From positions 65,622-129,621 of the forward strand of contig CAVYRM010000004.1 of NCBI GenBank assembly GCA_963770975.1: a DNA stretch of 64,000 nucleotides, in the 5' to 3' direction. Below, one piece after another: positions 6,286 to 58,179 of this stretch. The notes beneath the pieces were generated by a model, which was not told the DNA's origin, made no database searches, and saw only the letters and a program-made list of their open reading frames with translations. The first letter of the stretch is position 1. Every line of letters begins with the position of its first letter. The stretch comes from an uncultured delta proteobacterium. GTDB taxonomy: Bacteria > Desulfobacterota > Deferrimicrobia > Deferrimicrobiales > Deferrimicrobiaceae. The translations under genes and the position numbers were made by a program.

Positions 6286-6372
6286 TGGTGCCGAAGAGGG
6301 GAGTTGAACCCCTACGCCCTTGCGGGCACCAGACCCTGAATCTGGCGCGTCTGCCAGTTCCGCCACTTCGGC
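6286..6372 (-). tRNA. tRNA-Leu (anticodon CAG), long variable arm, encoded CCA
   Basis: The minus-strand 87-nt sequence is GCCGAAGTGGCGG...CCAGA-TTCAGGG-TCTGG...AGGGGTTCAACTCCCCTCTTCGGCACCA. The acceptor stem GCCGAAG/CTTCGGC, the T-arm GGGG-TTCAACT-CCCC and anticodon-loop positions 34-36 = CAG are all readable. Confidence 0.92.
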
Positions 6373-6472: not shown

Positions 6473-8740
6473 ATGGAGGAGGATCGGCGGATGCGGGACC
6501 AGGCATATTGGGAACGGTGGCTCCGGAGTCGGCCCGGCGCGTTGTCGGAGCGTCGCGCCTCCGTGAAGGATTGGTACCGCGAGGCCGGGGTGGAGAAAGG
6601 CGAACGCCGCGCGTTCAAGGCGGCGCTGAAAGCGCTCAACCCGGACGGGCTCGCGGGGAAGCGGGAGAAGAAGCCGCCACGCCGCGGAAAGTCCCGGTTC
6701 GATGTCCCGCGGGAGTCGCAGGGCGGGCGCGCGCCCGGGAGGGACGGCGGCGGCCGGATCGTGGAAGGCCGCTTGCGATTCACGCGGGAGGGACGCCCCC
6801 TGGTCATCCCGGAGAATCCCGAGGAACGGGCGGTCCGGGTTCCCGGGGACGCCCTGTCCGGCGCATGGCCGAAGGACCGGGTGGCGGTGCGGCTCGAACG
6901 CCGGCGCGGCGGGTCGCCGCCCTACGGACGGATCGAGCGGATCCTCGAGCGCGGGATCCGGGCCTTCGTCGGCCGTTTCGTCCCGGTGGACCGCCGTTCC
7001 TTCGTCCGCTTCCGGGACCGGGAGTCGGATCTGATGATCGAGGCCGTCTTCCCGGCGGGAGCCGTCGCGGAGCCCGGCGACCTCGTCCTCGCGGAAATCT
7101 CGGAATACCCCTCGGGACGCGAGACGGGCCGCGCGCGCGTCGTGCGGATTCTCGGGAAGTCGCACACGATGGAGACCATCTTCCTCGCGGTCGCCTCGAC
7201 GCTGGATCTCCCTGTGGCCTTCCCGGAGCCCGTGGAGGAGGACGCGTCGCGCATCCCCCAGGCGGTTCACCTGTCCGCCTGCGGCGACGGCGTGTCCCAC
7301 GGGAAGGAGGTGTTGCCCCGGGCCGACCAGCGGGCCCTCCCGTTTGTCACGATCGACGGGGAGGACGCCCGCGATTTCGACGACGCGGTCTGCCTCGTCC
7401 GGGAAGGAGATGGGTTCCGGCTCCACGTGGCGATCGCCGACGTCGCCCACTACGTGGAGCCGAGGTCGTCCCTCGACCGGGAGGCGTACAGCCGCGGGAC
7501 CAGCGTCTACTTTCCGGACCGGTGCATCCCCATGCTTCCGCCGGAGCTGTCCGAAGGAATCTGCAGTCTGAAGCCCGACGTGAACCGTCTCACGATGACG
7601 GTGGAGATCCCGATCCGGCCGGGAGGTGAACCGGGGACTCCCTCGTTCTTCCCCTCCGTGATCCGTAGCAGGGCGCGGCTGACCTATCGCGAAGTCCATG
7701 CGTTCCTCACGTCGGGTCGGCGCGAAGGGGAAGCGGAAGGGGCACAGGCCCCGAACATCGGACCGGCGATCGGCCGCATGCTGCAGGACATGGAGACGGC
7801 CGCGGGATGGCTCACGCTGGCCCGGTCCGGACGCGGGGCACTCGACCTCGATCTGCCGGAAACCGAGATCGGCGTGGCGGACGGGATGCCCGTCTCCGCG
7901 CAGCCGTCGGAACGGTTCGAATCGCACCGGATCATCGAGGAGTTCATGCTCCTCGCCAACACGGCGGTAGCCGTCTTCCTCTCCCACCGGGGCGACGCCT
8001 TTCTCTTCCGGATCCACGAAGAGCCCGCCCGGGACAAGATCGAGGAGTTCGAGGCGGCGGCCGGGCGCCTCCTGCGCCGCTCCCTTCCCGCCGGCCGGGT
8101 CGACACGGCTTCCCGCCTGCAGGCCTGGGCGGACCTGGCCCGGGGTGGAAAGTACGAGCGCGCGGTGCACAGGATGCTCCTGCGCAGCCTGATGCTCGCC
8201 CGGTACGGCCCGGAAACCAGGGGACATTTCGGGCTGGCGCTTTCCCGCTACACCCATTTCACCTCTCCGATCCGGCGCTACCCGGACCTCGTGGTCCACC
8301 GGGTGCTGAGGGCGGCGCTCGGGGACGGGGGATCGGCCGGTTACCTCGCGACCCTTCGGGAAAAATGGCCGGAGGTCGGAAGCCACCTGTCCGGGAGGGA
8401 GCGGATCGCCATGGAGGCGGAACGATCGGTCGAGCAACGCGCGAAGGCGCTGTACATGGAGGGCCAGGTGGGACGCACGTTCGAAGGGACCGTCTCCTCC
8501 CTCGTCTCTTCGGGGTTCTTCGTCGAACTGGAGGACCGGATGGTCGAGGGGATGGTCCACGTCTCCACCCTGCGGGACGACGAGTACCGGTTCGCTCCGG
8601 ACCGGATGGAATGGGTGGGCCTGTACCGGAAGCGGCGGATCGGCATGGGCGACCGCGTGCGCATCCGGGTCCGCCGGGCCGACCCCGATCGGGGAGAGGT
8701 GGACTTCCTGTTGGTTGAAAAGCTCCCCGAATCCCCATAA
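6473..8740 (+). CDS. rnr: Ribonuclease R (3'-5' exoribonuclease, RNB + S1 domains)
   Basis: This is the 806-aa ORF. The RNB core contains ...PFVTIDGEDARDFDDAV...YFPDRCIPMLP...FTSPIRRYPDLVVHR. The C-terminal S1 region reads GTVSSLVSSGFFVELE. The ORF-track start at 6320 overlaps the tRNA, so ATG 6473 (or 6452/6491) was chosen downstream of it. Confidence 0.88.
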   Translation: MEEDRRMRDQAYWERWLRSRPGALSERRASVKDWYREAGVEKGERRAFKAALKALNPDGLAGKREKKPPRRGKSRFDVPRESQGGRAPGRDGGGRIVEGRLRFTREGRPLVIPENPEERAVRVPGDALSGAWPKDRVAVRLERRRGGSPPYGRIERILERGIRAFVGRFVPVDRRSFVRFRDRESDLMIEAVFPAGAVAEPGDLVLAEISEYPSGRETGRARVVRILGKSHTMETIFLAVASTLDLPVAFPEPVEEDASRIPQAVHLSACGDGVSHGKEVLPRADQRALPFVTIDGEDARDFDDAVCLVREGDGFRLHVAIADVAHYVEPRSSLDREAYSRGTSVYFPDRCIPMLPPELSEGICSLKPDVNRLTMTVEIPIRPGGEPGTPSFFPSVIRSRARLTYREVHAFLTSGRREGEAEGAQAPNIGPAIGRMLQDMETAAGWLTLARSGRGALDLDLPETEIGVADGMPVSAQPSERFESHRIIEEFMLLANTAVAVFLSHRGDAFLFRIHEEPARDKIEEFEAAAGRLLRRSLPAGRVDTASRLQAWADLARGGKYERAVHRMLLRSLMLARYGPETRGHFGLALSRYTHFTSPIRRYPDLVVHRVLRAALGDGGSAGYLATLREKWPEVGSHLSGRERIAMEAERSVEQRAKALYMEGQVGRTFEGTVSSLVSSGFFVELEDRMVEGMVHVSTLRDDEYRFAPDRMEWVGLYRKRRIGMGDRVRIRVRRADPDRGEVDFLLVEKLPESP

Positions 8741-20628: not shown

Positions 20629-21119
20629 GGACCGTCGCCGTTTATCCCGGGTCGTTCGACCCTCCCACGAACGGGCACCTGGACATCATCGAACGATCCT
20701 CCCGGGTATTCTCCAGGGTGATCGTCGCGGTCGCCCTGAACCTCAGGAAAGACGCCTTCTTCACTCCCGCCGAGCGCGTGCGGATGCTGAAGCGGCTCAC
20801 CGGCGAGTTGCGAAACGTCGAGGTTACCTCGTTCACCGGCCTGCTGGTGGACTTCGCGCGCAAGCGGCAGGCGCACGTCCTCGTCCGGGGATTGCGGGCG
20901 ATCTCCGATTTCGAATACGAGTACCAGATGGCCCACATGAACCGGAAACTGGATCAGACCATCGATACGGTGATCATGATGACAGGGGAAGGTCACTCCG
21001 CCATCAGTTCCAACATCGTGAAGGAAATCGCCATGTTCGGCGGCAAGATCGACGACCTGGTACCCCCCGTGGTCCGGGATCTCGTGTTCAAGAAGCTGAA
21101 AGGAGCGAGGAAAAAATGA
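20625..21119 (+). CDS. coaD: Phosphopantetheine adenylyltransferase
   Basis: ATGA overlap with rsmD. Diagnostic segments are AVYPGSFDPPTNGHLDIIERS, LVRGLRAISDFEYE and ISSNIVKEI. Confidence 0.93.
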   Translation: MRTVAVYPGSFDPPTNGHLDIIERSSRVFSRVIVAVALNLRKDAFFTPAERVRMLKRLTGELRNVEVTSFTGLLVDFARKRQAHVLVRGLRAISDFEYEYQMAHMNRKLDQTIDTVIMMTGEGHSAISSNIVKEIAMFGGKIDDLVPPVVRDLVFKKLKGARKK

Positions 21120-22312
21120 AGCTTTCGAGCCGGGTAGGGAGAATCAAGCCGTCCCCGACGCTTGCGATCACCGGGAAGGCGAAGCAAATGAAGGCGCAGG
21201 GGATCGACGTGGTCGGTTTCGGGGCGGGAGAGCCGGATTTCGACACTCCGGACAATATCAAGGCCGTCGCCAAGAAGGCGTTGGACGACGGGTATACGAA
21301 ATACACCCCGGTCCCGGGTTCGCCGGAGCTGAAGGACGCCGTCATCGCGAAGCTCAAGCGGGACAACGGGCTCGAGTACAAGCGGGAGAACGTCATCGTC
21401 TCCCTCGGGGCGAAGCACTCGATCTACAACGTCGCACAGGCGTTTCTCGATCCGGGCGACGAGGTGATCATCCCCGCCCCGTACTGGGTGTCCTACCCGG
21501 ACATCGCGCTCCTGGCGGACGCCACGCCGGTGATCGTGGAGGCGAAGCAGTCGACGGGTTTCAAGATCACGCCGGCCCAGCTGGAAAAGGCGATCACCCC
21601 GAAGACGAAGCTCTTCGTGCTGAACAGCCCCTCCAACCCGACGGGGGCGGCCTACACGAAGGCGGAGCTCGAGGCGCTGGCCCAGGTGATCGTGAAGAAG
21701 GACATCACCGTCCTTTCGGACGAGATCTACGAGAAGCTCGTCTACGACGGGTTCCGTTTCGTCTCGATCGCCTCGCTGGGCGAGGAGGTGAAGAAGCGGA
21801 CGATCCTCGTGAACGGGCTGTCCAAGTCCCACTCGATGACGGGGTGGCGGATCGGGTACGTGGCGGCGGACAAGGATCTCGTGGCGGCGATGAACAACAT
21901 CCAGAGCCAGAGCACGAGCAACCCCGTGTCGTTCTGCGACAAGGCGTCGATCGAGGCGCTGAACGGCCCGCAGGACTTCCAGAAGGCATGGGTCGCCGAG
22001 TTCGACCGTCGTCGCCGCTACATCACCGATCGTCTCAACAAGATGCCCGGGGTATCGTGCCTGCTGCCGCAGGGGGCGTTCTACGTCTTCCCGAACTTCT
22101 CCGGGTGCTACGGGAAGAAGACCCCGGCGGGCAAGGTGATCGACGGCTCTTCGGCCCTCTCGGCCTACCTGCTCGACGACCACAAGGTGGCGGCCGTCCC
22201 GGGGATCGCCTTCGGCGACGACGCGTGCCAGCGGCTCTCCTACGCCACGTCGATGAAGAACATCGAGAAGGGGATCGACCGGATCGAGCAGGCCGTCAAG
22301 GCCCTCGCGTAA
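21116..22312 (+). CDS. Pyridoxal-phosphate-dependent aminotransferase (aspartate aminotransferase class I)
   Basis: ATGA overlap with coaD. Diagnostic segments are GAGEPDFDTP, NSPSNPTGA and GLSKSHSMTGWRIGY (PLP lysine). Confidence 0.88.
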   Translation: MKLSSRVGRIKPSPTLAITGKAKQMKAQGIDVVGFGAGEPDFDTPDNIKAVAKKALDDGYTKYTPVPGSPELKDAVIAKLKRDNGLEYKRENVIVSLGAKHSIYNVAQAFLDPGDEVIIPAPYWVSYPDIALLADATPVIVEAKQSTGFKITPAQLEKAITPKTKLFVLNSPSNPTGAAYTKAELEALAQVIVKKDITVLSDEIYEKLVYDGFRFVSIASLGEEVKKRTILVNGLSKSHSMTGWRIGYVAADKDLVAAMNNIQSQSTSNPVSFCDKASIEALNGPQDFQKAWVAEFDRRRRYITDRLNKMPGVSCLLPQGAFYVFPNFSGCYGKKTPAGKVIDGSSALSAYLLDDHKVAAVPGIAFGDDACQRLSYATSMKNIEKGIDRIEQAVKALA

Positions 22313-22321
22313 CCGACCCGA

Positions 22322-22358
22322 CGGTTCCGCGGGGAGGCACGTTCTCCCCGCGGAACCG
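22322..22358. terminator. Perfect 14-bp hairpin after aminotransferase stop (terminator candidate, no U-tract)
   Basis: CGGTTCCGCGGGGA (22322-22335), 9-nt loop, TCCCCGCGGAACCG (22345-22358). Confidence 0.4.
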
Positions 22359-22414
22359 GGACTTTCCTCGCAACGGGCCCGAGAAGAATATTCCACCTCA
22401 TCGCCGTACCTGGA

Positions 22415-22539
22415 GCGGGATCCCCTCCCGAGCGGGCGTGTGTTTTTTCCGGAGGCATGGACGCCGAGAGGGAAAAACACCCGCCAGCGTAGGCCGCCAG
22501 GGACGGCGGCCGGAGCGTAGCGAGGGAGGGTGATCCTGC
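22415..22539 (+). repeat. 121-nt structured intergenic element, copy A
   Basis: Closing helix 22417-22429 / 22524-22536 with bulged T22531. Box GAGCGGGCGTGTG at 22430-22442. Hairpin 22435-22450 / 22470-22485. Hairpin GGCCGCC-AGGGAC-GGCGGCC at 22492-22511. Box GAGCGTAGCGA at 22513-22523. It matches copy B at 56689-56809. Confidence 0.6.
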
Positions 22540-22577: not shown

Positions 22578-22991
22578 TCAGAGGGGGCGTTGGCCGGTTT
22601 TCTTGAACCGGAAGTAGTCCTCGAGGATCTTCGCGTGGTCGAACGCGATCGGGGAGGGGAGGTCCCCCTCGCCGAACAGCCGCGCCTCGGCGGCGTCGTC
22701 CCCGCCGTTCGGCTCGCCGTCGGAACGGCCGACGTACACCGTGGAGATCGTGTGGTGGCGCGGATCCCGGTTCGGATCGGAGTAGACGCCGAGGAGCGCG
22801 GTGAGGGTCACCCGGAGGCCGGTCTCCTCGAACGCCTCGCGCACGGCCGCGGTTTCGACGGTTTCGCCGGTCTCGACGAACCCGCCGGGGATCGCCCAAC
22901 CCGGCGGGGGATACTTCCGTCGGACGAGGACGACGCGGTCGCCGATCTCGATGACCACGTCGACCGTGGGTAGCGGATTACGGCCTGCCAT
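22578..22991 (-). CDS. NUDIX hydrolase
   Basis: The Nudix box is GGFVETGETVETAAVREAFEETGL. The ORF is 137 aa. Confidence 0.88.
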   Translation of the reverse strand: MAGRNPLPTVDVVIEIGDRVVLVRRKYPPPGWAIPGGFVETGETVETAAVREAFEETGLRVTLTALLGVYSDPNRDPRHHTISTVYVGRSDGEPNGGDDAAEARLFGEGDLPSPIAFDHAKILEDYFRFKKTGQRPL

Positions 22992-56147: not shown

Positions 56148-56597
56148 ATGGACGGCGAGTGCGGGATCCGCGTCCTGCTCCTGCGCGGAGACGAGAAGCA
56201 GCTCCCGGCCTACCAGACGGCCGGTTCGGCCGGGATGGACCTCAAGGCCGAAGTCGACGGGGAAGTCGTCATCCCGCCGATGGGGAGGGCGAAGATCCCC
56301 ACGGGGATCGCCCTGTCGATCCCGCCGGGAGTGGAGGGGCAGGTCCGTCCCCGCAGCGGGTTGGCGATGCGTCACGGCGTGACGTGCCTCAACTCCCCGG
56401 GGACCATCGACTCGGATTACCGCGGGGAGGTGTGCGTGATCCTCGCGAACTTCGGGCAGGACCCGTTCCACGTGCGCCGGGGGGACCGGATCGCCCAGAT
56501 CGTCTTCTCCCGCGCGCTCCGGGCGCGCCTCGAGGTCGTGTCGGACCTCGGGGAGACCCCGCGGGGGGACGGCGGCTTCGGCCATACAGGGAGATAA
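56148..56597 (+). CDS. dut: dUTP diphosphatase
   Basis: Diagnostic segments are [26 protein letters not shown] and GFGHTG. Confidence 0.93.
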
Positions 56598-56688
56598 TCC
56601 GGGCCGGTGATAATGTGCTTTCCCGGAGGACGTGAACGGAACGGTCGATACAATCGCTTTGATGCTGATGCAGCGGGGTACTGACGCA

Positions 56689-56809
56689 GGGGGCCTTCCC
56701 CTGAGCGGGCGTCTGAAGCGAGTGGAGCCAGGGACGGCGGGAACGAGCGGAGGCGCAGCGAGGGCGGCCAGGGACGGCCGCTGAGCGGTAGCGAAGGGGA
56801 ACGGCCCCC
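56689..56809 (+). repeat. 121-nt structured intergenic element, copy B (dut-purB spacer)
   Basis: Closing helix 56689-56702 / 56795-56809 with bulged C56802. Box GAGCGGGCGTCTG at 56703-56715. AGGGAC motifs at 56730-56735 and 56770-56775. Hairpin GGCGGCC-AGGGAC-GGCCGCT at 56763-56782. Box GAGCGGTAGCGA at 56783-56794. Confidence 0.6.
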
Positions 56810-56868
56810 GAGGAAGAGGGGCCCCGCTGCGAAACAGGTAGAGCGATCCGGAGACCGGGGGTGACGAC

Positions 56869-58179
56869 GTGATCGAACGGTACACGCGGCCGGAGATGGC
56901 GGCCATCTGGAACGACGAGAACCGGTTCCGGATCTGGCTCGAGATCGAGATCCTCGCCATGGAGGCGATGGTCCGGCAGGGGTGGATCCCGGCGGACGCC
57001 CTTGCGCGGGTCCGGAAGAAGGCGACCTTCGACATCGACCGGATCAACGAGATCGAGAAGAGGGTCAAGCACGACGTGATCGCCTTCCTGACCTCCGTGG
57101 CGGAGCACATCGGCGACGACTCCCGGTTCCTCCACGTGGGGATGACGAGCTCCGACGTGCTGGACACGGCCTTCGCCGTCCAGATGCGCCAGGCCCTGAC
57201 CCTGCTGATCCACGAGGCGGAAGGGGTCTTCGGCGTCCTCAAGGCCCGGGCGCTGGAGCACCGGGGCACCGTGATGATCGGACGGACGCACGGGATCCAC
57301 GCGGAGCCGGTGACGTTCGGGTGGAAGATGGCCCTGTGGGCCGACGAGGTGCGGCGCGACATCCACCGGCTCAAGCGCGCCCGCGACGTGATCTCCGTCG
57401 GGAAGATCTCCGGGGCGGTGGGCACCTTCGCGAACATCGATCCCGCCGTCGAGGAGTACGTCTGCCGGAAGCTCGGGCTCGCCCCGGCGCCCGCCTCCAC
57501 CCAGGTGATCCAGCGGGACCGCCACGCCGAGGTGTTCTCCGCGCTCGCCATCGCGGCCTCCTCCCTGGACAAGTTCGCCACCGAGATCCGCCACCTTCAG
57601 CGGACGGAGGTCCTCGAGGTGGAGGAGTTCTTCTCCGCGGGGCAGAAAGGCTCCTCCGCCATGCCGCACAAGAGGAACCCCGTGCTTTCCGAGAACCTGT
57701 CGGGGATCTCCAGGCTCCTGCGCGGCTATTCCGTGACGGCCATGGAGAACATGGCCCTCTGGCACGAGCGCGACATCAGCCACTCCTCCGCGGAACGCGT
57801 GATCGCCCCCGACGCCACGATCCTCCTGCACTTCGCGCTCGGACGATTCCGTGGGATGATGGAGAAGCTTCTCGTCTACCCCGACCGGATGAGGGAAAAC
57901 CTGGAGAGCACCCACGGCCTCCTGTACTCCCAGCGCGTGCTCCTCGCCCTGGCGGCGAAGGGGTTCTCGCGGGAGAAGTCGTACGAGGTGGTCCAGCGGT
58001 CCGCCATGAAGTCGTGGAAGACCCGGCAGCCGCTGGCGGCGCTGCTCTGGAAGGACAGGGATGTGCGCGCGGCCTTGCCGAAAAAGGAGTTCGACGCGCT
58101 GTTCGACATCGGGTACTACCTGAAGAACATCGACGGGATCATCGACCGCGTGTTCGCGCGAAAGGGAGGGAAGGCGTGA
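56869..58179 (+). CDS. purB: Adenylosuccinate lyase
   Basis: GTG start. Diagnostic segments are MIERYTRPEM, HVGMTSSDV, the signature GSSAMPHKRNP and the C-terminal ADSL_C domain. Confidence 0.95.
   Translation: MIERYTRPEMAAIWNDENRFRIWLEIEILAMEAMVRQGWIPADALARVRKKATFDIDRINEIEKRVKHDVIAFLTSVAEHIGDDSRFLHVGMTSSDVLDTAFAVQMRQALTLLIHEAEGVFGVLKARALEHRGTVMIGRTHGIHAEPVTFGWKMALWADEVRRDIHRLKRARDVISVGKISGAVGTFANIDPAVEEYVCRKLGLAPAPASTQVIQRDRHAEVFSALAIAASSLDKFATEIRHLQRTEVLEVEEFFSAGQKGSSAMPHKRNPVLSENLSGISRLLRGYSVTAMENMALWHERDISHSSAERVIAPDATILLHFALGRFRGMMEKLLVYPDRMRENLESTHGLLYSQRVLLALAAKGFSREKSYEVVQRSAMKSWKTRQPLAALLWKDRDVRAALPKKEFDALFDIGYYLKNIDGIIDRVFARKGGKA

Follow-up and report, generated by a model that had tools for sequence, protein, structure and literature searches.

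Repetitive extragenic palindromic (REP) sequences are short (20-40 nt), simple hairpins headed by GTAG or GTGG; they are mobilised by REP-associated tyrosine transposases (RAYTs) and have roles in mRNA stability and termination, and REPs inside operons, as at malE-malF, set differential mRNA stability. Structured miniature inverted-repeat transposable elements (MITEs) such as ERIC, Correia/CREE, RUP, BOX and RPE are intergenic repeats of ~100-250 nt that are co-transcribed, fold as RNA and carry terminal inverted repeats, and they can give their neighbours stop codons, ribosome-binding sites or processing sites. In clusters of REPs, the bacterial interspersed mosaic elements (BIMEs), orientation alternates between two unit types (PMC2817692). 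REP/BIME sequences and structured MITEs are the closest known systems, in genomic behaviour, to a structured repeat found in a 64,000-nt stretch of DNA from an uncultured delta proteobacterium of the Deferrimicrobiaceae (assembly GCA_963770975.1, contig CAVYRM010000004.1, positions 65,622 to 129,621 of the forward strand). This whole stretch is called the window, and coordinates are positions within it. One copy of the repeat, copy B (subfamily 'B2'), lies between dut and purB, and the other, copy A (subfamily 'A2'), lies between an aminotransferase gene and a NUDIX gene.

In proposed action, the closest systems are the RNAs that capture the protein CsrA. Apical hexaloops CANGGANG, in the context C-A-N-GGA-N-G, are high-affinity CsrA/RsmE sites (PMC4894983), and the complex leaves the N of ANGGA looped out (bioRxiv 10.1101/2020.08.24.265819). 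The flaA leader of Campylobacter jejuni contains two adjacent ANGGA hexaloops that titrate one CsrA dimer, in a FliW-type CsrA system without small RNAs (sRNAs) (PMC4894983). The Csr/Rsm sRNAs (CsrB/C, RsmX/Y/Z/V/W) are stand-alone genes with GacA/UvrY-dependent promoters, terminators and many GGA sites, and have been described principally in Gammaproteobacteria (PMC4333381, PMC13407953). Geobacter has CsrA, but an antagonist sRNA has not been characterised there (PMC13407953). In form, the closest described RNA is the TwoAYGGAY motif (RF01731), which has two A-Y-GGA-Y terminal loops and tandem G.A pairs in its stem and is predicted to sequester a CsrA dimer (PMC4333381); its taxa are gut Clostridiales or Gammaproteobacteria (PMC2864571).

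Copies A and B are members of a multi-copy, dispersed family of structured, G-rich intergenic repeats that is absent from Rfam. Folding of the G-rich strand produces a rod, at the end of which a three-way junction bears two hairpins. The core of a unit is about 130 nt long, or about 155-200 nt including the outer helices, which differ from subfamily to subfamily and covary. The features of the two window copies are as follows, with the evidence for each in parentheses; L numbers denote loci fetched for comparison, and L048 is the orthologous dut-purB locus (see below).

56689-56809, + strand: core of copy B, a three-way junction of helix P1, the P2 arm and the P3 hairpin (fold; covariance-model match; ortholog in L048)
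56689-56702, + strand: closing helix P1, 5' strand (predicted fold; covariation in the family)
56795-56809, + strand: closing helix P1, 3' strand, with bulged C56802 (predicted fold; the bulge is U in L048)
56703-56715, + strand: junction box 1, GAGCGGGCGTCTG (sequence; fold; seed alignment)
56709-56756, + strand: P2 arm, with basal helix GCGUCU/AGGCGC containing a U.G pair, internal loops and the tip GCC-AGGGAC-GGC (fold)
56730-56735, + strand: P2 apical hexaloop AGGGAC, in the context C-A-N-GGA-N-G (fold; AUGGAU in L048)
56763-56782, + strand: P3 hairpin GGCGGCC-AGGGAC-GGCCGCU (fold; compensatory change in L048)
56770-56775, + strand: P3 apical hexaloop AGGGAC (fold; AAGGAA in L048)
56783-56794, + strand: junction box 2, GAGCGGUAGCGA (UAG.G invariant in seed alignment A3)
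56670-56678, + strand: outer helix P0, 5' strand, GCAGCGGGG (whole-spacer fold; compensatory pairs relative to L048)
56822-56830, + strand: outer helix P0, 3' strand, CCCCGCUGC (whole-spacer fold; comparison with L048)
56803-56822, + strand: alternative hairpin GGCCCCC-GAGGAAGA-GGGGCC, a competitor for the 3' strand of P1 (sequence)
56653-56850, + strand: full predicted rod of ATCGCT...AGCGAT arms, P0 and core (minimum-free-energy and centroid folds, z = -3.2)
22417-22537, + strand: core of copy A, with the same architecture as copy B (fold; covariance-model match of 125.3 bits)

An earlier note on this DNA had listed the boxes, helices and hairpins of copy B, and all of them are present where it placed them. 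The 'second, weaker AGGGAC unit' that it described at 56730-56735 is also present; it is the apical hexaloop of P2, a conserved second arm, and is equivalent to the loop of P3. In the predicted fold, P1 consists of 14 bp in which 56689-56702 pairs with 56795-56801 and 56803-56809, leaving C56802 bulged. The leading GA of box 1 (56703-56704) faces GA 56793-56794 between P1 and a 2-bp helix formed by GC 56705-56706 and GC 56791-56792, an arrangement that suggests sheared tandem G.A geometry, and the remainder of box 1 starts P2. The basal helix of P2 joins GCGTCT 56709-56714 to AGGCGC 56751-56756 and the arm continues to the tip pairs GCC/GGC, while the stem of P3 joins 56763-56769 to 56776-56782. 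The hexaloops of copy A are AUGGAC (22457-22462) and AGGGAC (22499-22504). The minimum free energy is -68.5 kcal/mol for copy B (z = -3.8) and -75.2 kcal/mol for copy A (z = -7.1), and the dinucleotide-shuffled controls called for in the earlier note yielded equally stable folds in only 1 of 200 cases for copy B and 0 of 200 for copy A. The reverse strands fold less well, at -53.1 kcal/mol (copy B) and -64.3 kcal/mol (copy A). The rod at ~56653-56850 is predicted to fill most of the dut-purB spacer and to be tipped by the junction, its outermost arms being purely a product of the prediction.

Two further features of copy B lie on its 3' side. The extension GAGGAAGAGGGGCCCCGC is confined to the B2 subfamily. 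The alternative hairpin at 56803-56822 is kept in L048, where a C-to-U change suits both folds. The hairpin CCCCGAGGAAGAGGGG within it (56806-56821) is exact over 16 positions of the CRISPR-DR32 model (17.1 bits, E 2.5, gathering score 48); a repeat array is absent, and the match was dismissed as a chance resemblance.

The helices are upheld by covariation throughout the family. RNAalifold applied to 13 seed units gives 29 pairs, of which 18 show compensatory change. When the comparison is extended to 89 distinct units, 94.3% of cells pair, versus 37-49% when the 3' partner column is slid by 1-3 positions; 23 of the 29 pairs have changed on both sides, and the observed pairing measures were matched in none of 500 shuffles. 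Compensatory changes are seen in 13 of the 15 P1 pairs across the family, and the tip and base pairs of P2 covary as well. G.U occurs in 76 cells of the consensus pairs and A.C in 7, and because of this excess the G-rich (+) strand is identified as the folding strand, in agreement with the choice made in the earlier note from G.T pairs. Many of the 76 G.U cells represent one inherited U.G pair in P2, but the total draws on about ten different pairs. The G-rich strand (G 44%, C 26%, A 21%, T 9%) is the more stable of the two in 80 of 82 units, with a mean unit fold of -65 kcal/mol. The G.U asymmetry fits RNA and single-stranded DNA alike.

Comparison with the orthologous spacer in L048 bears on whether a unit is maintained at a given site. 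Pfam identifies the flanking genes of copy B as dUTPase (56148-56597) and adenylosuccinate lyase (56869-58179), as the gene names dut and purB in the earlier note implied, within the gene order pnp, M16 peptidase, dut, copy B, purB, purQ, purL. The + strand of copy B is the sense strand of both dut and purB, and the purB start codon lies 59 nt downstream. Among the family loci, the dut-purB position is common only to the window and L048, where the amino acid identity is 84% for Dut and 93% for PurB. From P0 through the 3' extension there are 13 differences in ~155 columns, an identity of ~92% by a count made by eye, versus 65% at four-fold degenerate sites in purB and 62.5% at those in dut. 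The rest of the spacer is unalignable or much shorter, with 22 nt separating the dut stop codon from the element in L048. All four loop N positions have changed (AGGGAC to AUGGAU and AGGGAC to AAGGAA), as have the bulged base (C to U) and a junction N position (GGAG to GUAG). P3 reads GACGGCC/GGCCGUC in L048, with one compensatory pair and one G.U-to-G-C change; P1 acquires a new G.U; and P0 reads UCGCGGGG/CCCCGCGA, a difference of two compensatory pairs that supports the 9-bp outer helix proposed in the earlier note. The equivalent of P0 in L004 is GGCGGGG/CCCCGCC. An identity so far above that of four-fold sites, reached through changes that preserve the fold, argues that copy B is maintained by selection on the +-strand fold; by this comparison, purifying selection has retained it at dut-purB. 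The inference of the earlier note, that a fold with conserved boxes and compensatory helices is under selection and that its family is unrecognised, is thereby strongly supported, given the family-wide covariation, the L048 changes and the Rfam results described next.

The family was collected in stages of increasing breadth. A degenerate pattern derived from copies A and B found 5 loci in the metagenome-assembled genome (MAG) CAVXEY01 ('uncultured delta proteobacterium') and 1 locus in 'Deltaproteobacteria bacterium SKS1.bin98'; the deltaproteobacterial label of the family comes from the titles of two MAG records alone. A looser pattern then found 73 loci in metagenomes of wetlands, sediments and aquifers. 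Both collection scans forced A.GGA and TAGCG, so that invariance at these positions carries weight only in units that the patterns left unconstrained. Genes in the fetched loci were called with an open reading frame (ORF) filter based on G+C content at third codon positions (GC3) instead of a gene finder. From the 13 seed units (alignment A3) a covariance model was built, which gave 100 matches in 79 loci (487 kb searched), 89 of them distinct, so that the further copies and the covariation sought in the earlier note are both in evidence; one MAG holds at least 11 units across 5 loci. Within the 64-kb window, the model found copy B (99.9 bits, E 4e-17) and copy A and no further or degenerate copies, with filters on or off, the next best score being 16 bits (E 0.25). 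A pattern scan of viral contigs gave 0 matches.

At gathering score, no Rfam 15 family matches copy B, copy A, an A1/B1 pair or an A2 variant. At E <= 10, searches with these four returned chance fragments only: the weak matches to CRISPR-DR32, PyrR209, mir-3158, FinP, Vax2os1_3, RsmW and CrfA (E 0.1-9) involve simple hairpins and were set aside. The sole Rfam match of the window at gathering score is a tRNA gene at 6289-6372 on the - strand (51.1 bits). Records with the exact sequence of the PurB and Dut proteins were not found, and the aminotransferase had such records only in two 1.4-kb JGI contigs.

CANGGANG hexaloops form both apical loops of the unit in copies A and B and in all intact family members, including those that were unconstrained by the scans. 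Both hairpins have invariant loop bases A, G, G and A, and an invariant closing C and G, throughout the seed alignment, where no search pattern had constrained the B-type partner units or loop 1 of the A-type units. Intact units outside both scan patterns retain GGA in both loops, some as pentaloops. In the largest subfamily, the most variable columns include the N positions (2 and 6 of either hexaloop), along with covarying stem pairs and a single junction position; family-wide, all four bases occur at position 2 and likewise at position 6. Judged from sequence, the C-A-N-GGA-N-G form of both loops across subfamilies is consistent with an RNA that presents sites to a CsrA/RsmA-type protein, which was one of the suggestions of the earlier note.

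Some units carry insertions near these loops. Two variants of the copy-A subfamily, L040:299-475 and L023:186-362 (both on the - strand), have a 50-nt insertion in the P2 arm with extra hairpins. Those of L040 are GCC-AUGGAU-GGC and GCGC-AUGGAU-GCGC, the latter mutated to AUAGAU in L023, and the insertion represents a modular gain of GGA hairpins. At L057:608-624, a 16-17-nt AT-rich insertion, ATGAAATGACTGACCG, lies just ahead of the P2 tip hairpin in a unit that is otherwise intact; the orthologous unit in L055 is without it.

Against this background the units can be set beside the known systems. They share with TwoAYGGAY the two hexaloop hairpins, which have the form A-N-GGA-N here and A-Y-GGA-Y there. 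However, RF01731 matched none of copy B, copy A, the A1/B1 pair and the A2 variant, either at gathering score or at E <= 10; copy B has AGGGAC twice, with G at position 2; and the family as a whole admits any base at positions 2 and 6. Unlike TwoAYGGAY, the units have a long P2 arm and an outer rod, are dispersed in multiple copies, and form inverted pairs, and the family is deltaproteobacterial. The Csr/Rsm sRNAs resemble the units in displaying GGA in apical hairpin loops and in having paralogous copies in some genomes. They differ in that the units have two conserved sites each, no promoter or terminator signals, and a REP-like dispersal, and among the Csr/Rsm models only RsmW matched, through a 20-nt fragment that covers P3 in copy A (12.5 bits, E 7.8, gathering score 52). 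The leader of C. jejuni flaA is a single-locus sequence of 45 nt that overlaps the ribosome-binding site, whereas the units are dispersed three-way junctions of 130 nt.

The likeness to REPs, BIMEs and REPINs is one of behaviour: the units are intergenic, multi-copy, GC-rich and folded, and they prefer gene 3' ends. Like the units of a BIME, they occur as two types in alternating orientation, all 15 listed pairs being inverted and heterotypic. The earlier note had offered a REP-like repeat as one possibility, and this holds for the copy number, intergenic location, inverted pairs and turnover; the unit is not a classical REP, because it is a three-way junction of 130-160 nt. Even the smallest size, in a range of 121-160 nt, exceeds that of a REP, and GTAG is found inside junction box 2 rather than at a head. 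Also unlike REP units, these have sequence-specific loops, and the partners in a pair come from different subfamilies and are ~70% alike. In contrast to MITEs, no related autonomous insertion sequence (IS) or target-site duplication was identified in the fetched loci, the window copies are without terminal arms, and the unit core is under purifying selection at the orthologous dut-purB locus. One property expected of MITEs, presence/absence polymorphism at an orthologous site, does occur in the aminotransferase-NUDIX spacer.

That spacer, which contains copy A, lies between a class I/II aminotransferase gene (21116-22312, + strand) and a convergent NUDIX gene (22578-22991, - strand), both identified with Pfam. 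Since copy A is between convergent genes, it cannot be a 5' leader. The content of the spacer varies. It holds an A2 unit in the window; in L019 (81% amino acid identity in the aminotransferase, 77% in NUDIX) it holds a B1 unit paired with a unit of another subfamily; and in L013 it holds one unit in the opposite orientation. L046 (aminotransferase 97% identical in amino acids) has no unit at the copy-A position, where an unrelated insert of lower GC content is found. Units therefore turn over in subfamily, number and orientation at the copy-A locus.

The surroundings of copy A contain other structures. A perfect 15-bp GC-rich hairpin at 22322-22358 (CGGTTCCGCGGGGAG...CTCCCCGCGGAACCG) begins 10 nt past the aminotransferase stop codon and ends 54 nt short of position 22412, where the covariance-model match to copy A starts. 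The hairpin persists in the close relative L046 with both arms changed (GCTCCGCGGGGAGG...CCTCCCCGCGGAGC), and it is probably the terminator or 3' stabiliser of the aminotransferase gene, though no U-tract follows it. The insert in L046 (1180-2020, read on the - strand) comes after this terminator hairpin and comprises ~0.85 kb of lower-GC DNA with short ORFs on the opposite strand, followed by a B1 unit.

Elsewhere, too, the units are intergenic, and their neighbours belong to no single protein family. Pfam analysis of 150 neighbouring ORFs identified histidinol dehydrogenase, NadA, SRP54-type GTPase, PurD, ThyX, TruA, KsgA and other housekeeping genes. No recurrent transposase was found among these 150 ORFs or the immediate neighbours, and no RAYT (Y1 transposase) was found among the 25 most frequent Pfam families of the 150 ORFs or in the neighbour clusters. 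An element-specific partner gene (a transposase, a TnpB/IscB-type protein or a retron reverse transcriptase) was considered and rejected, the neighbours being unrelated housekeeping genes. In 76 of the 114 neighbour relations scored, it is the 3' end of the gene that faces the unit. In the first-found MAG loci an A-like unit is preceded by an inverted B-like unit, and the listed pairs all lie 5'-to-5', 30-140 nt apart (L059 and L081 being one locus); arrays of more than two units were not seen. Pairing of unlike subfamilies would avoid a perfect long hairpin while still offering a G-rich unit to transcripts from either side.

Many B1/A1 units and pairs are flanked by inverted, AT-rich arms of ~30 nt, CTNAGTGCYKCRTTTCATAAATACGGYAACGT, which lie 21-29 nt outside the covariance-model match and are absent from both window copies. 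Examples identified from the sequence are as follows.

L035:2262-2290 and 2462-2495: AT-rich arms
L008:6373-6388 and 6724-6739: AT-rich arms
L052, L053, L059 and L015: further AT-rich arms

The arms give stop codons to incoming ORFs, and those in L038, L080 and L052 give GGAG just 5' of a downstream start codon. They may be a MITE terminal inverted repeat, a target palindrome or a regulatory site. Half-arms without an intact core are found at L064:6194-6225 and L005:6971-7005, the latter adjoining the outer-helix remnant GGAGTCC, and these look like decayed units. Two other identities for the arms were rejected: a sigma-70, sigma-54 or extracytoplasmic function (ECF) promoter, for which no convincing spacing was seen by eye, and a separate 'empty' palindrome, for which only the decayed half-arms turned up. 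The ends of the element read CTNAG on both sides, and since CTNAG is itself palindromic, a target-site duplication is indistinguishable from an inverted repeat. No IS bearing the CTNAG/arm ends was found within the fetched loci. An integron attC site was also rejected: R''/R' (AAC/GTT) boxes are lacking, and what is conserved lies inside the element.

The favoured explanation of these properties is that the unit works as RNA and that, at dut-purB, it would be part of a dut-purB read-through transcript, which is proposed because dut and purB both lie on the strand of the fold. The unit would then be a docking module whose two hexaloops are clamped by a homodimeric RNA-binding protein. CsrA is the leading candidate, because the C-A-N-GGA-N-G apical hexaloop with its N looped out is the published high-affinity site of that protein. 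Binding might either titrate the protein, the units being dispersed mRNA-borne sponges comparable to the C. jejuni flaA leader, or tie the fate of the flanking mRNA to the protein, and the very stable rod might additionally block 3' exonucleases as REPs do. Overall, a dispersed RNA module that docks a dimeric protein, with CsrA as the best candidate and either titration or coupling to mRNA fate as the outcome, is given not quite an even chance of being correct. A more specific proposal, that the units are mobile mRNA-embedded CsrA decoys and that a REP-like family has spread a two-hexaloop, dimer-clamping CsrA site through deltaproteobacterial intergenic regions, is possible but distinctly more doubtful.

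A number of observations weigh against the docking module. The GGA count does not clearly exceed the expectation from composition: copy A has 7 versus 3.5 expected, with 58 of 2000 shuffles reaching 7, and copy B has 6 versus 4.8 expected, a number reached in 650 of 2000 shuffles and not significant. A many-site, CsrB-type sponge was rejected for this reason. Short-stem C-A-N-GGA-N-G hairpins turn up fairly readily by chance (2.8 expected per window, 7 seen), and because the scans forced A.GGA in most units, the invariance of the loops must be judged from the smaller, unconstrained subset. The junction boxes are invariant across subfamilies, which goes beyond the needs of a two-hairpin protein site. 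Among solo units, convergence of the gene on the 3' side prevails by 31 to 13, and where genes run in tandem the G-rich strand is more often antisense to them (11) than not (5); with this bias, many units would escape read-through transcription in the folding sense. The centres of the pairs are GC-rich and, at 30-140 nt, too tight for obvious promoters, and a scan limited to sigma-70-like promoters and intrinsic terminators found neither adjoining copies A and B on the relevant strand. Finally, neither the window nor L001-L081 gave a csrA in tblastn searches that used the E. coli and B. subtilis CsrA proteins, which is uninformative in ~0.55 Mb drawn from many genomes, and tblastn of the window and loci for fliW and hfq was equally negative and, at that sampling, equally uninformative.

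The chief rival to the docking module is a selfish, non-autonomous element of MITE or REPIN type, in which the G-rich strand would fold as single-stranded DNA, its loops and boxes would be read by a trans-acting transposase (HUH/RAYT-type), and conservation would reflect selection for mobility and not host function. Much of the genomic behaviour is what such an element would display: multiple copies scattered among unrelated housekeeping genes, listed pairs (15 of 15) that are inverted and heterotypic, AT-rich inverted arms on many units and pairs with decayed half-arms elsewhere, and turnover of subfamily, number and orientation in the aminotransferase-NUDIX spacer. The G.T wobble asymmetry suits single-stranded DNA as well as RNA, and box 2 has a conserved GTAG, the motif carried at the head of REPs. 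However, a dead insertion would be expected to decay neutrally, whereas the dut-purB copy has kept its fold and ~92% identity next to four-fold sites at 62.5-65%. The lack of a recurrent transposase among the neighbouring ORFs sampled, the armless window copies and a target-site duplication that could not be resolved also count against it, as does the fact that paired units are only ~70% alike, unlike REPIN arms. Selfishness as the whole explanation is accordingly considered rather unlikely, though it is the rival most to be reckoned with. A passive RNA structure, that is, a REP-like mRNA stabiliser, terminator or attenuator whose loops have no specific ligand, would account for the very stable folds, their location mostly near gene 3' ends (76 of 114), and the good folding of both strands. 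Copy B, inside the apparent operon pnp-M16-dut-purB, also occupies a REP-type position for differential mRNA stability. What this explanation fails to address is the invariance of the A and GGA loop bases beside freely varying N positions, the invariant junction boxes and the G.U strand asymmetry. Moreover, no U-tract follows the helices of copies A and B. Such a structure is improbable as the full account.

Two alternatives would make the unit or its transcript a more conventional regulator. Stand-alone genes for Rsm/Csr-like sponge sRNAs, each with its own promoter and terminator, would explain two CsrA-type hexaloops per unit, the several paralogous subfamilies, and the tendency of the unit's 3' end to converge on the 3' end of its neighbour (31 versus 13), as independent transcription units would. 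Yet promoter-like or terminator-like signals were not found beside the window copies, the sequence upstream is unconserved between the window and L048 (which has only 22 nt after the dut stop codon), the paired units abut 5'-to-5' across a GC-rich centre, and no Rfam Rsm/Csr model matched beyond the 20-nt RsmW fragment (E 7.8); this alternative is judged quite improbable. The earlier note had also proposed a cis-regulatory leader of the purBSQLF operon. The sense orientation of copy B, 59 nt upstream of the purB start codon and conserved in L048, and the alternative hairpin at 56803-56822 that competes with P1 would suit a leader or riboswitch of purB-purS-purQ-purL. This reading is already contradicted by the distribution of the family, and next to nothing is left of its likelihood: copy A is located between the convergent aminotransferase and NUDIX genes, the ~100 relatives lie beside unrelated housekeeping genes, among them those for histidinol dehydrogenase, NadA, SRP54-family proteins, ThyX, TruA and many others, and there is no Rfam match to the purine (RF00167), ZTP/pfl or any other riboswitch model.

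On the sequence evidence the element is real and selected, and it belongs to a family new to Rfam, a structured interspersed repeat with a candidate protein-binding signature. The covariance model defines this family and can be used for annotating wetland and sediment MAGs. The finding bears on the open question of whether bacterial interspersed repeats are merely selfish or have been recruited for function, since here a single copy is ~92% conserved versus ~64% at neutral sites, with substitutions at positions that a fold combined with a protein-binding site would tolerate. Two CsrA-type hexaloops in a conserved deltaproteobacterial RNA provide a concrete, testable hypothesis. Should the units prove to be CsrA decoys, Deltaproteobacteria would have their first RNA antagonist of CsrA, and for the first time a sponge would be a dispersed repeat instead of a dedicated sRNA gene; a FliW-type CsrA system would gain an RNA-based layer of titration spread over dozens of transcripts.

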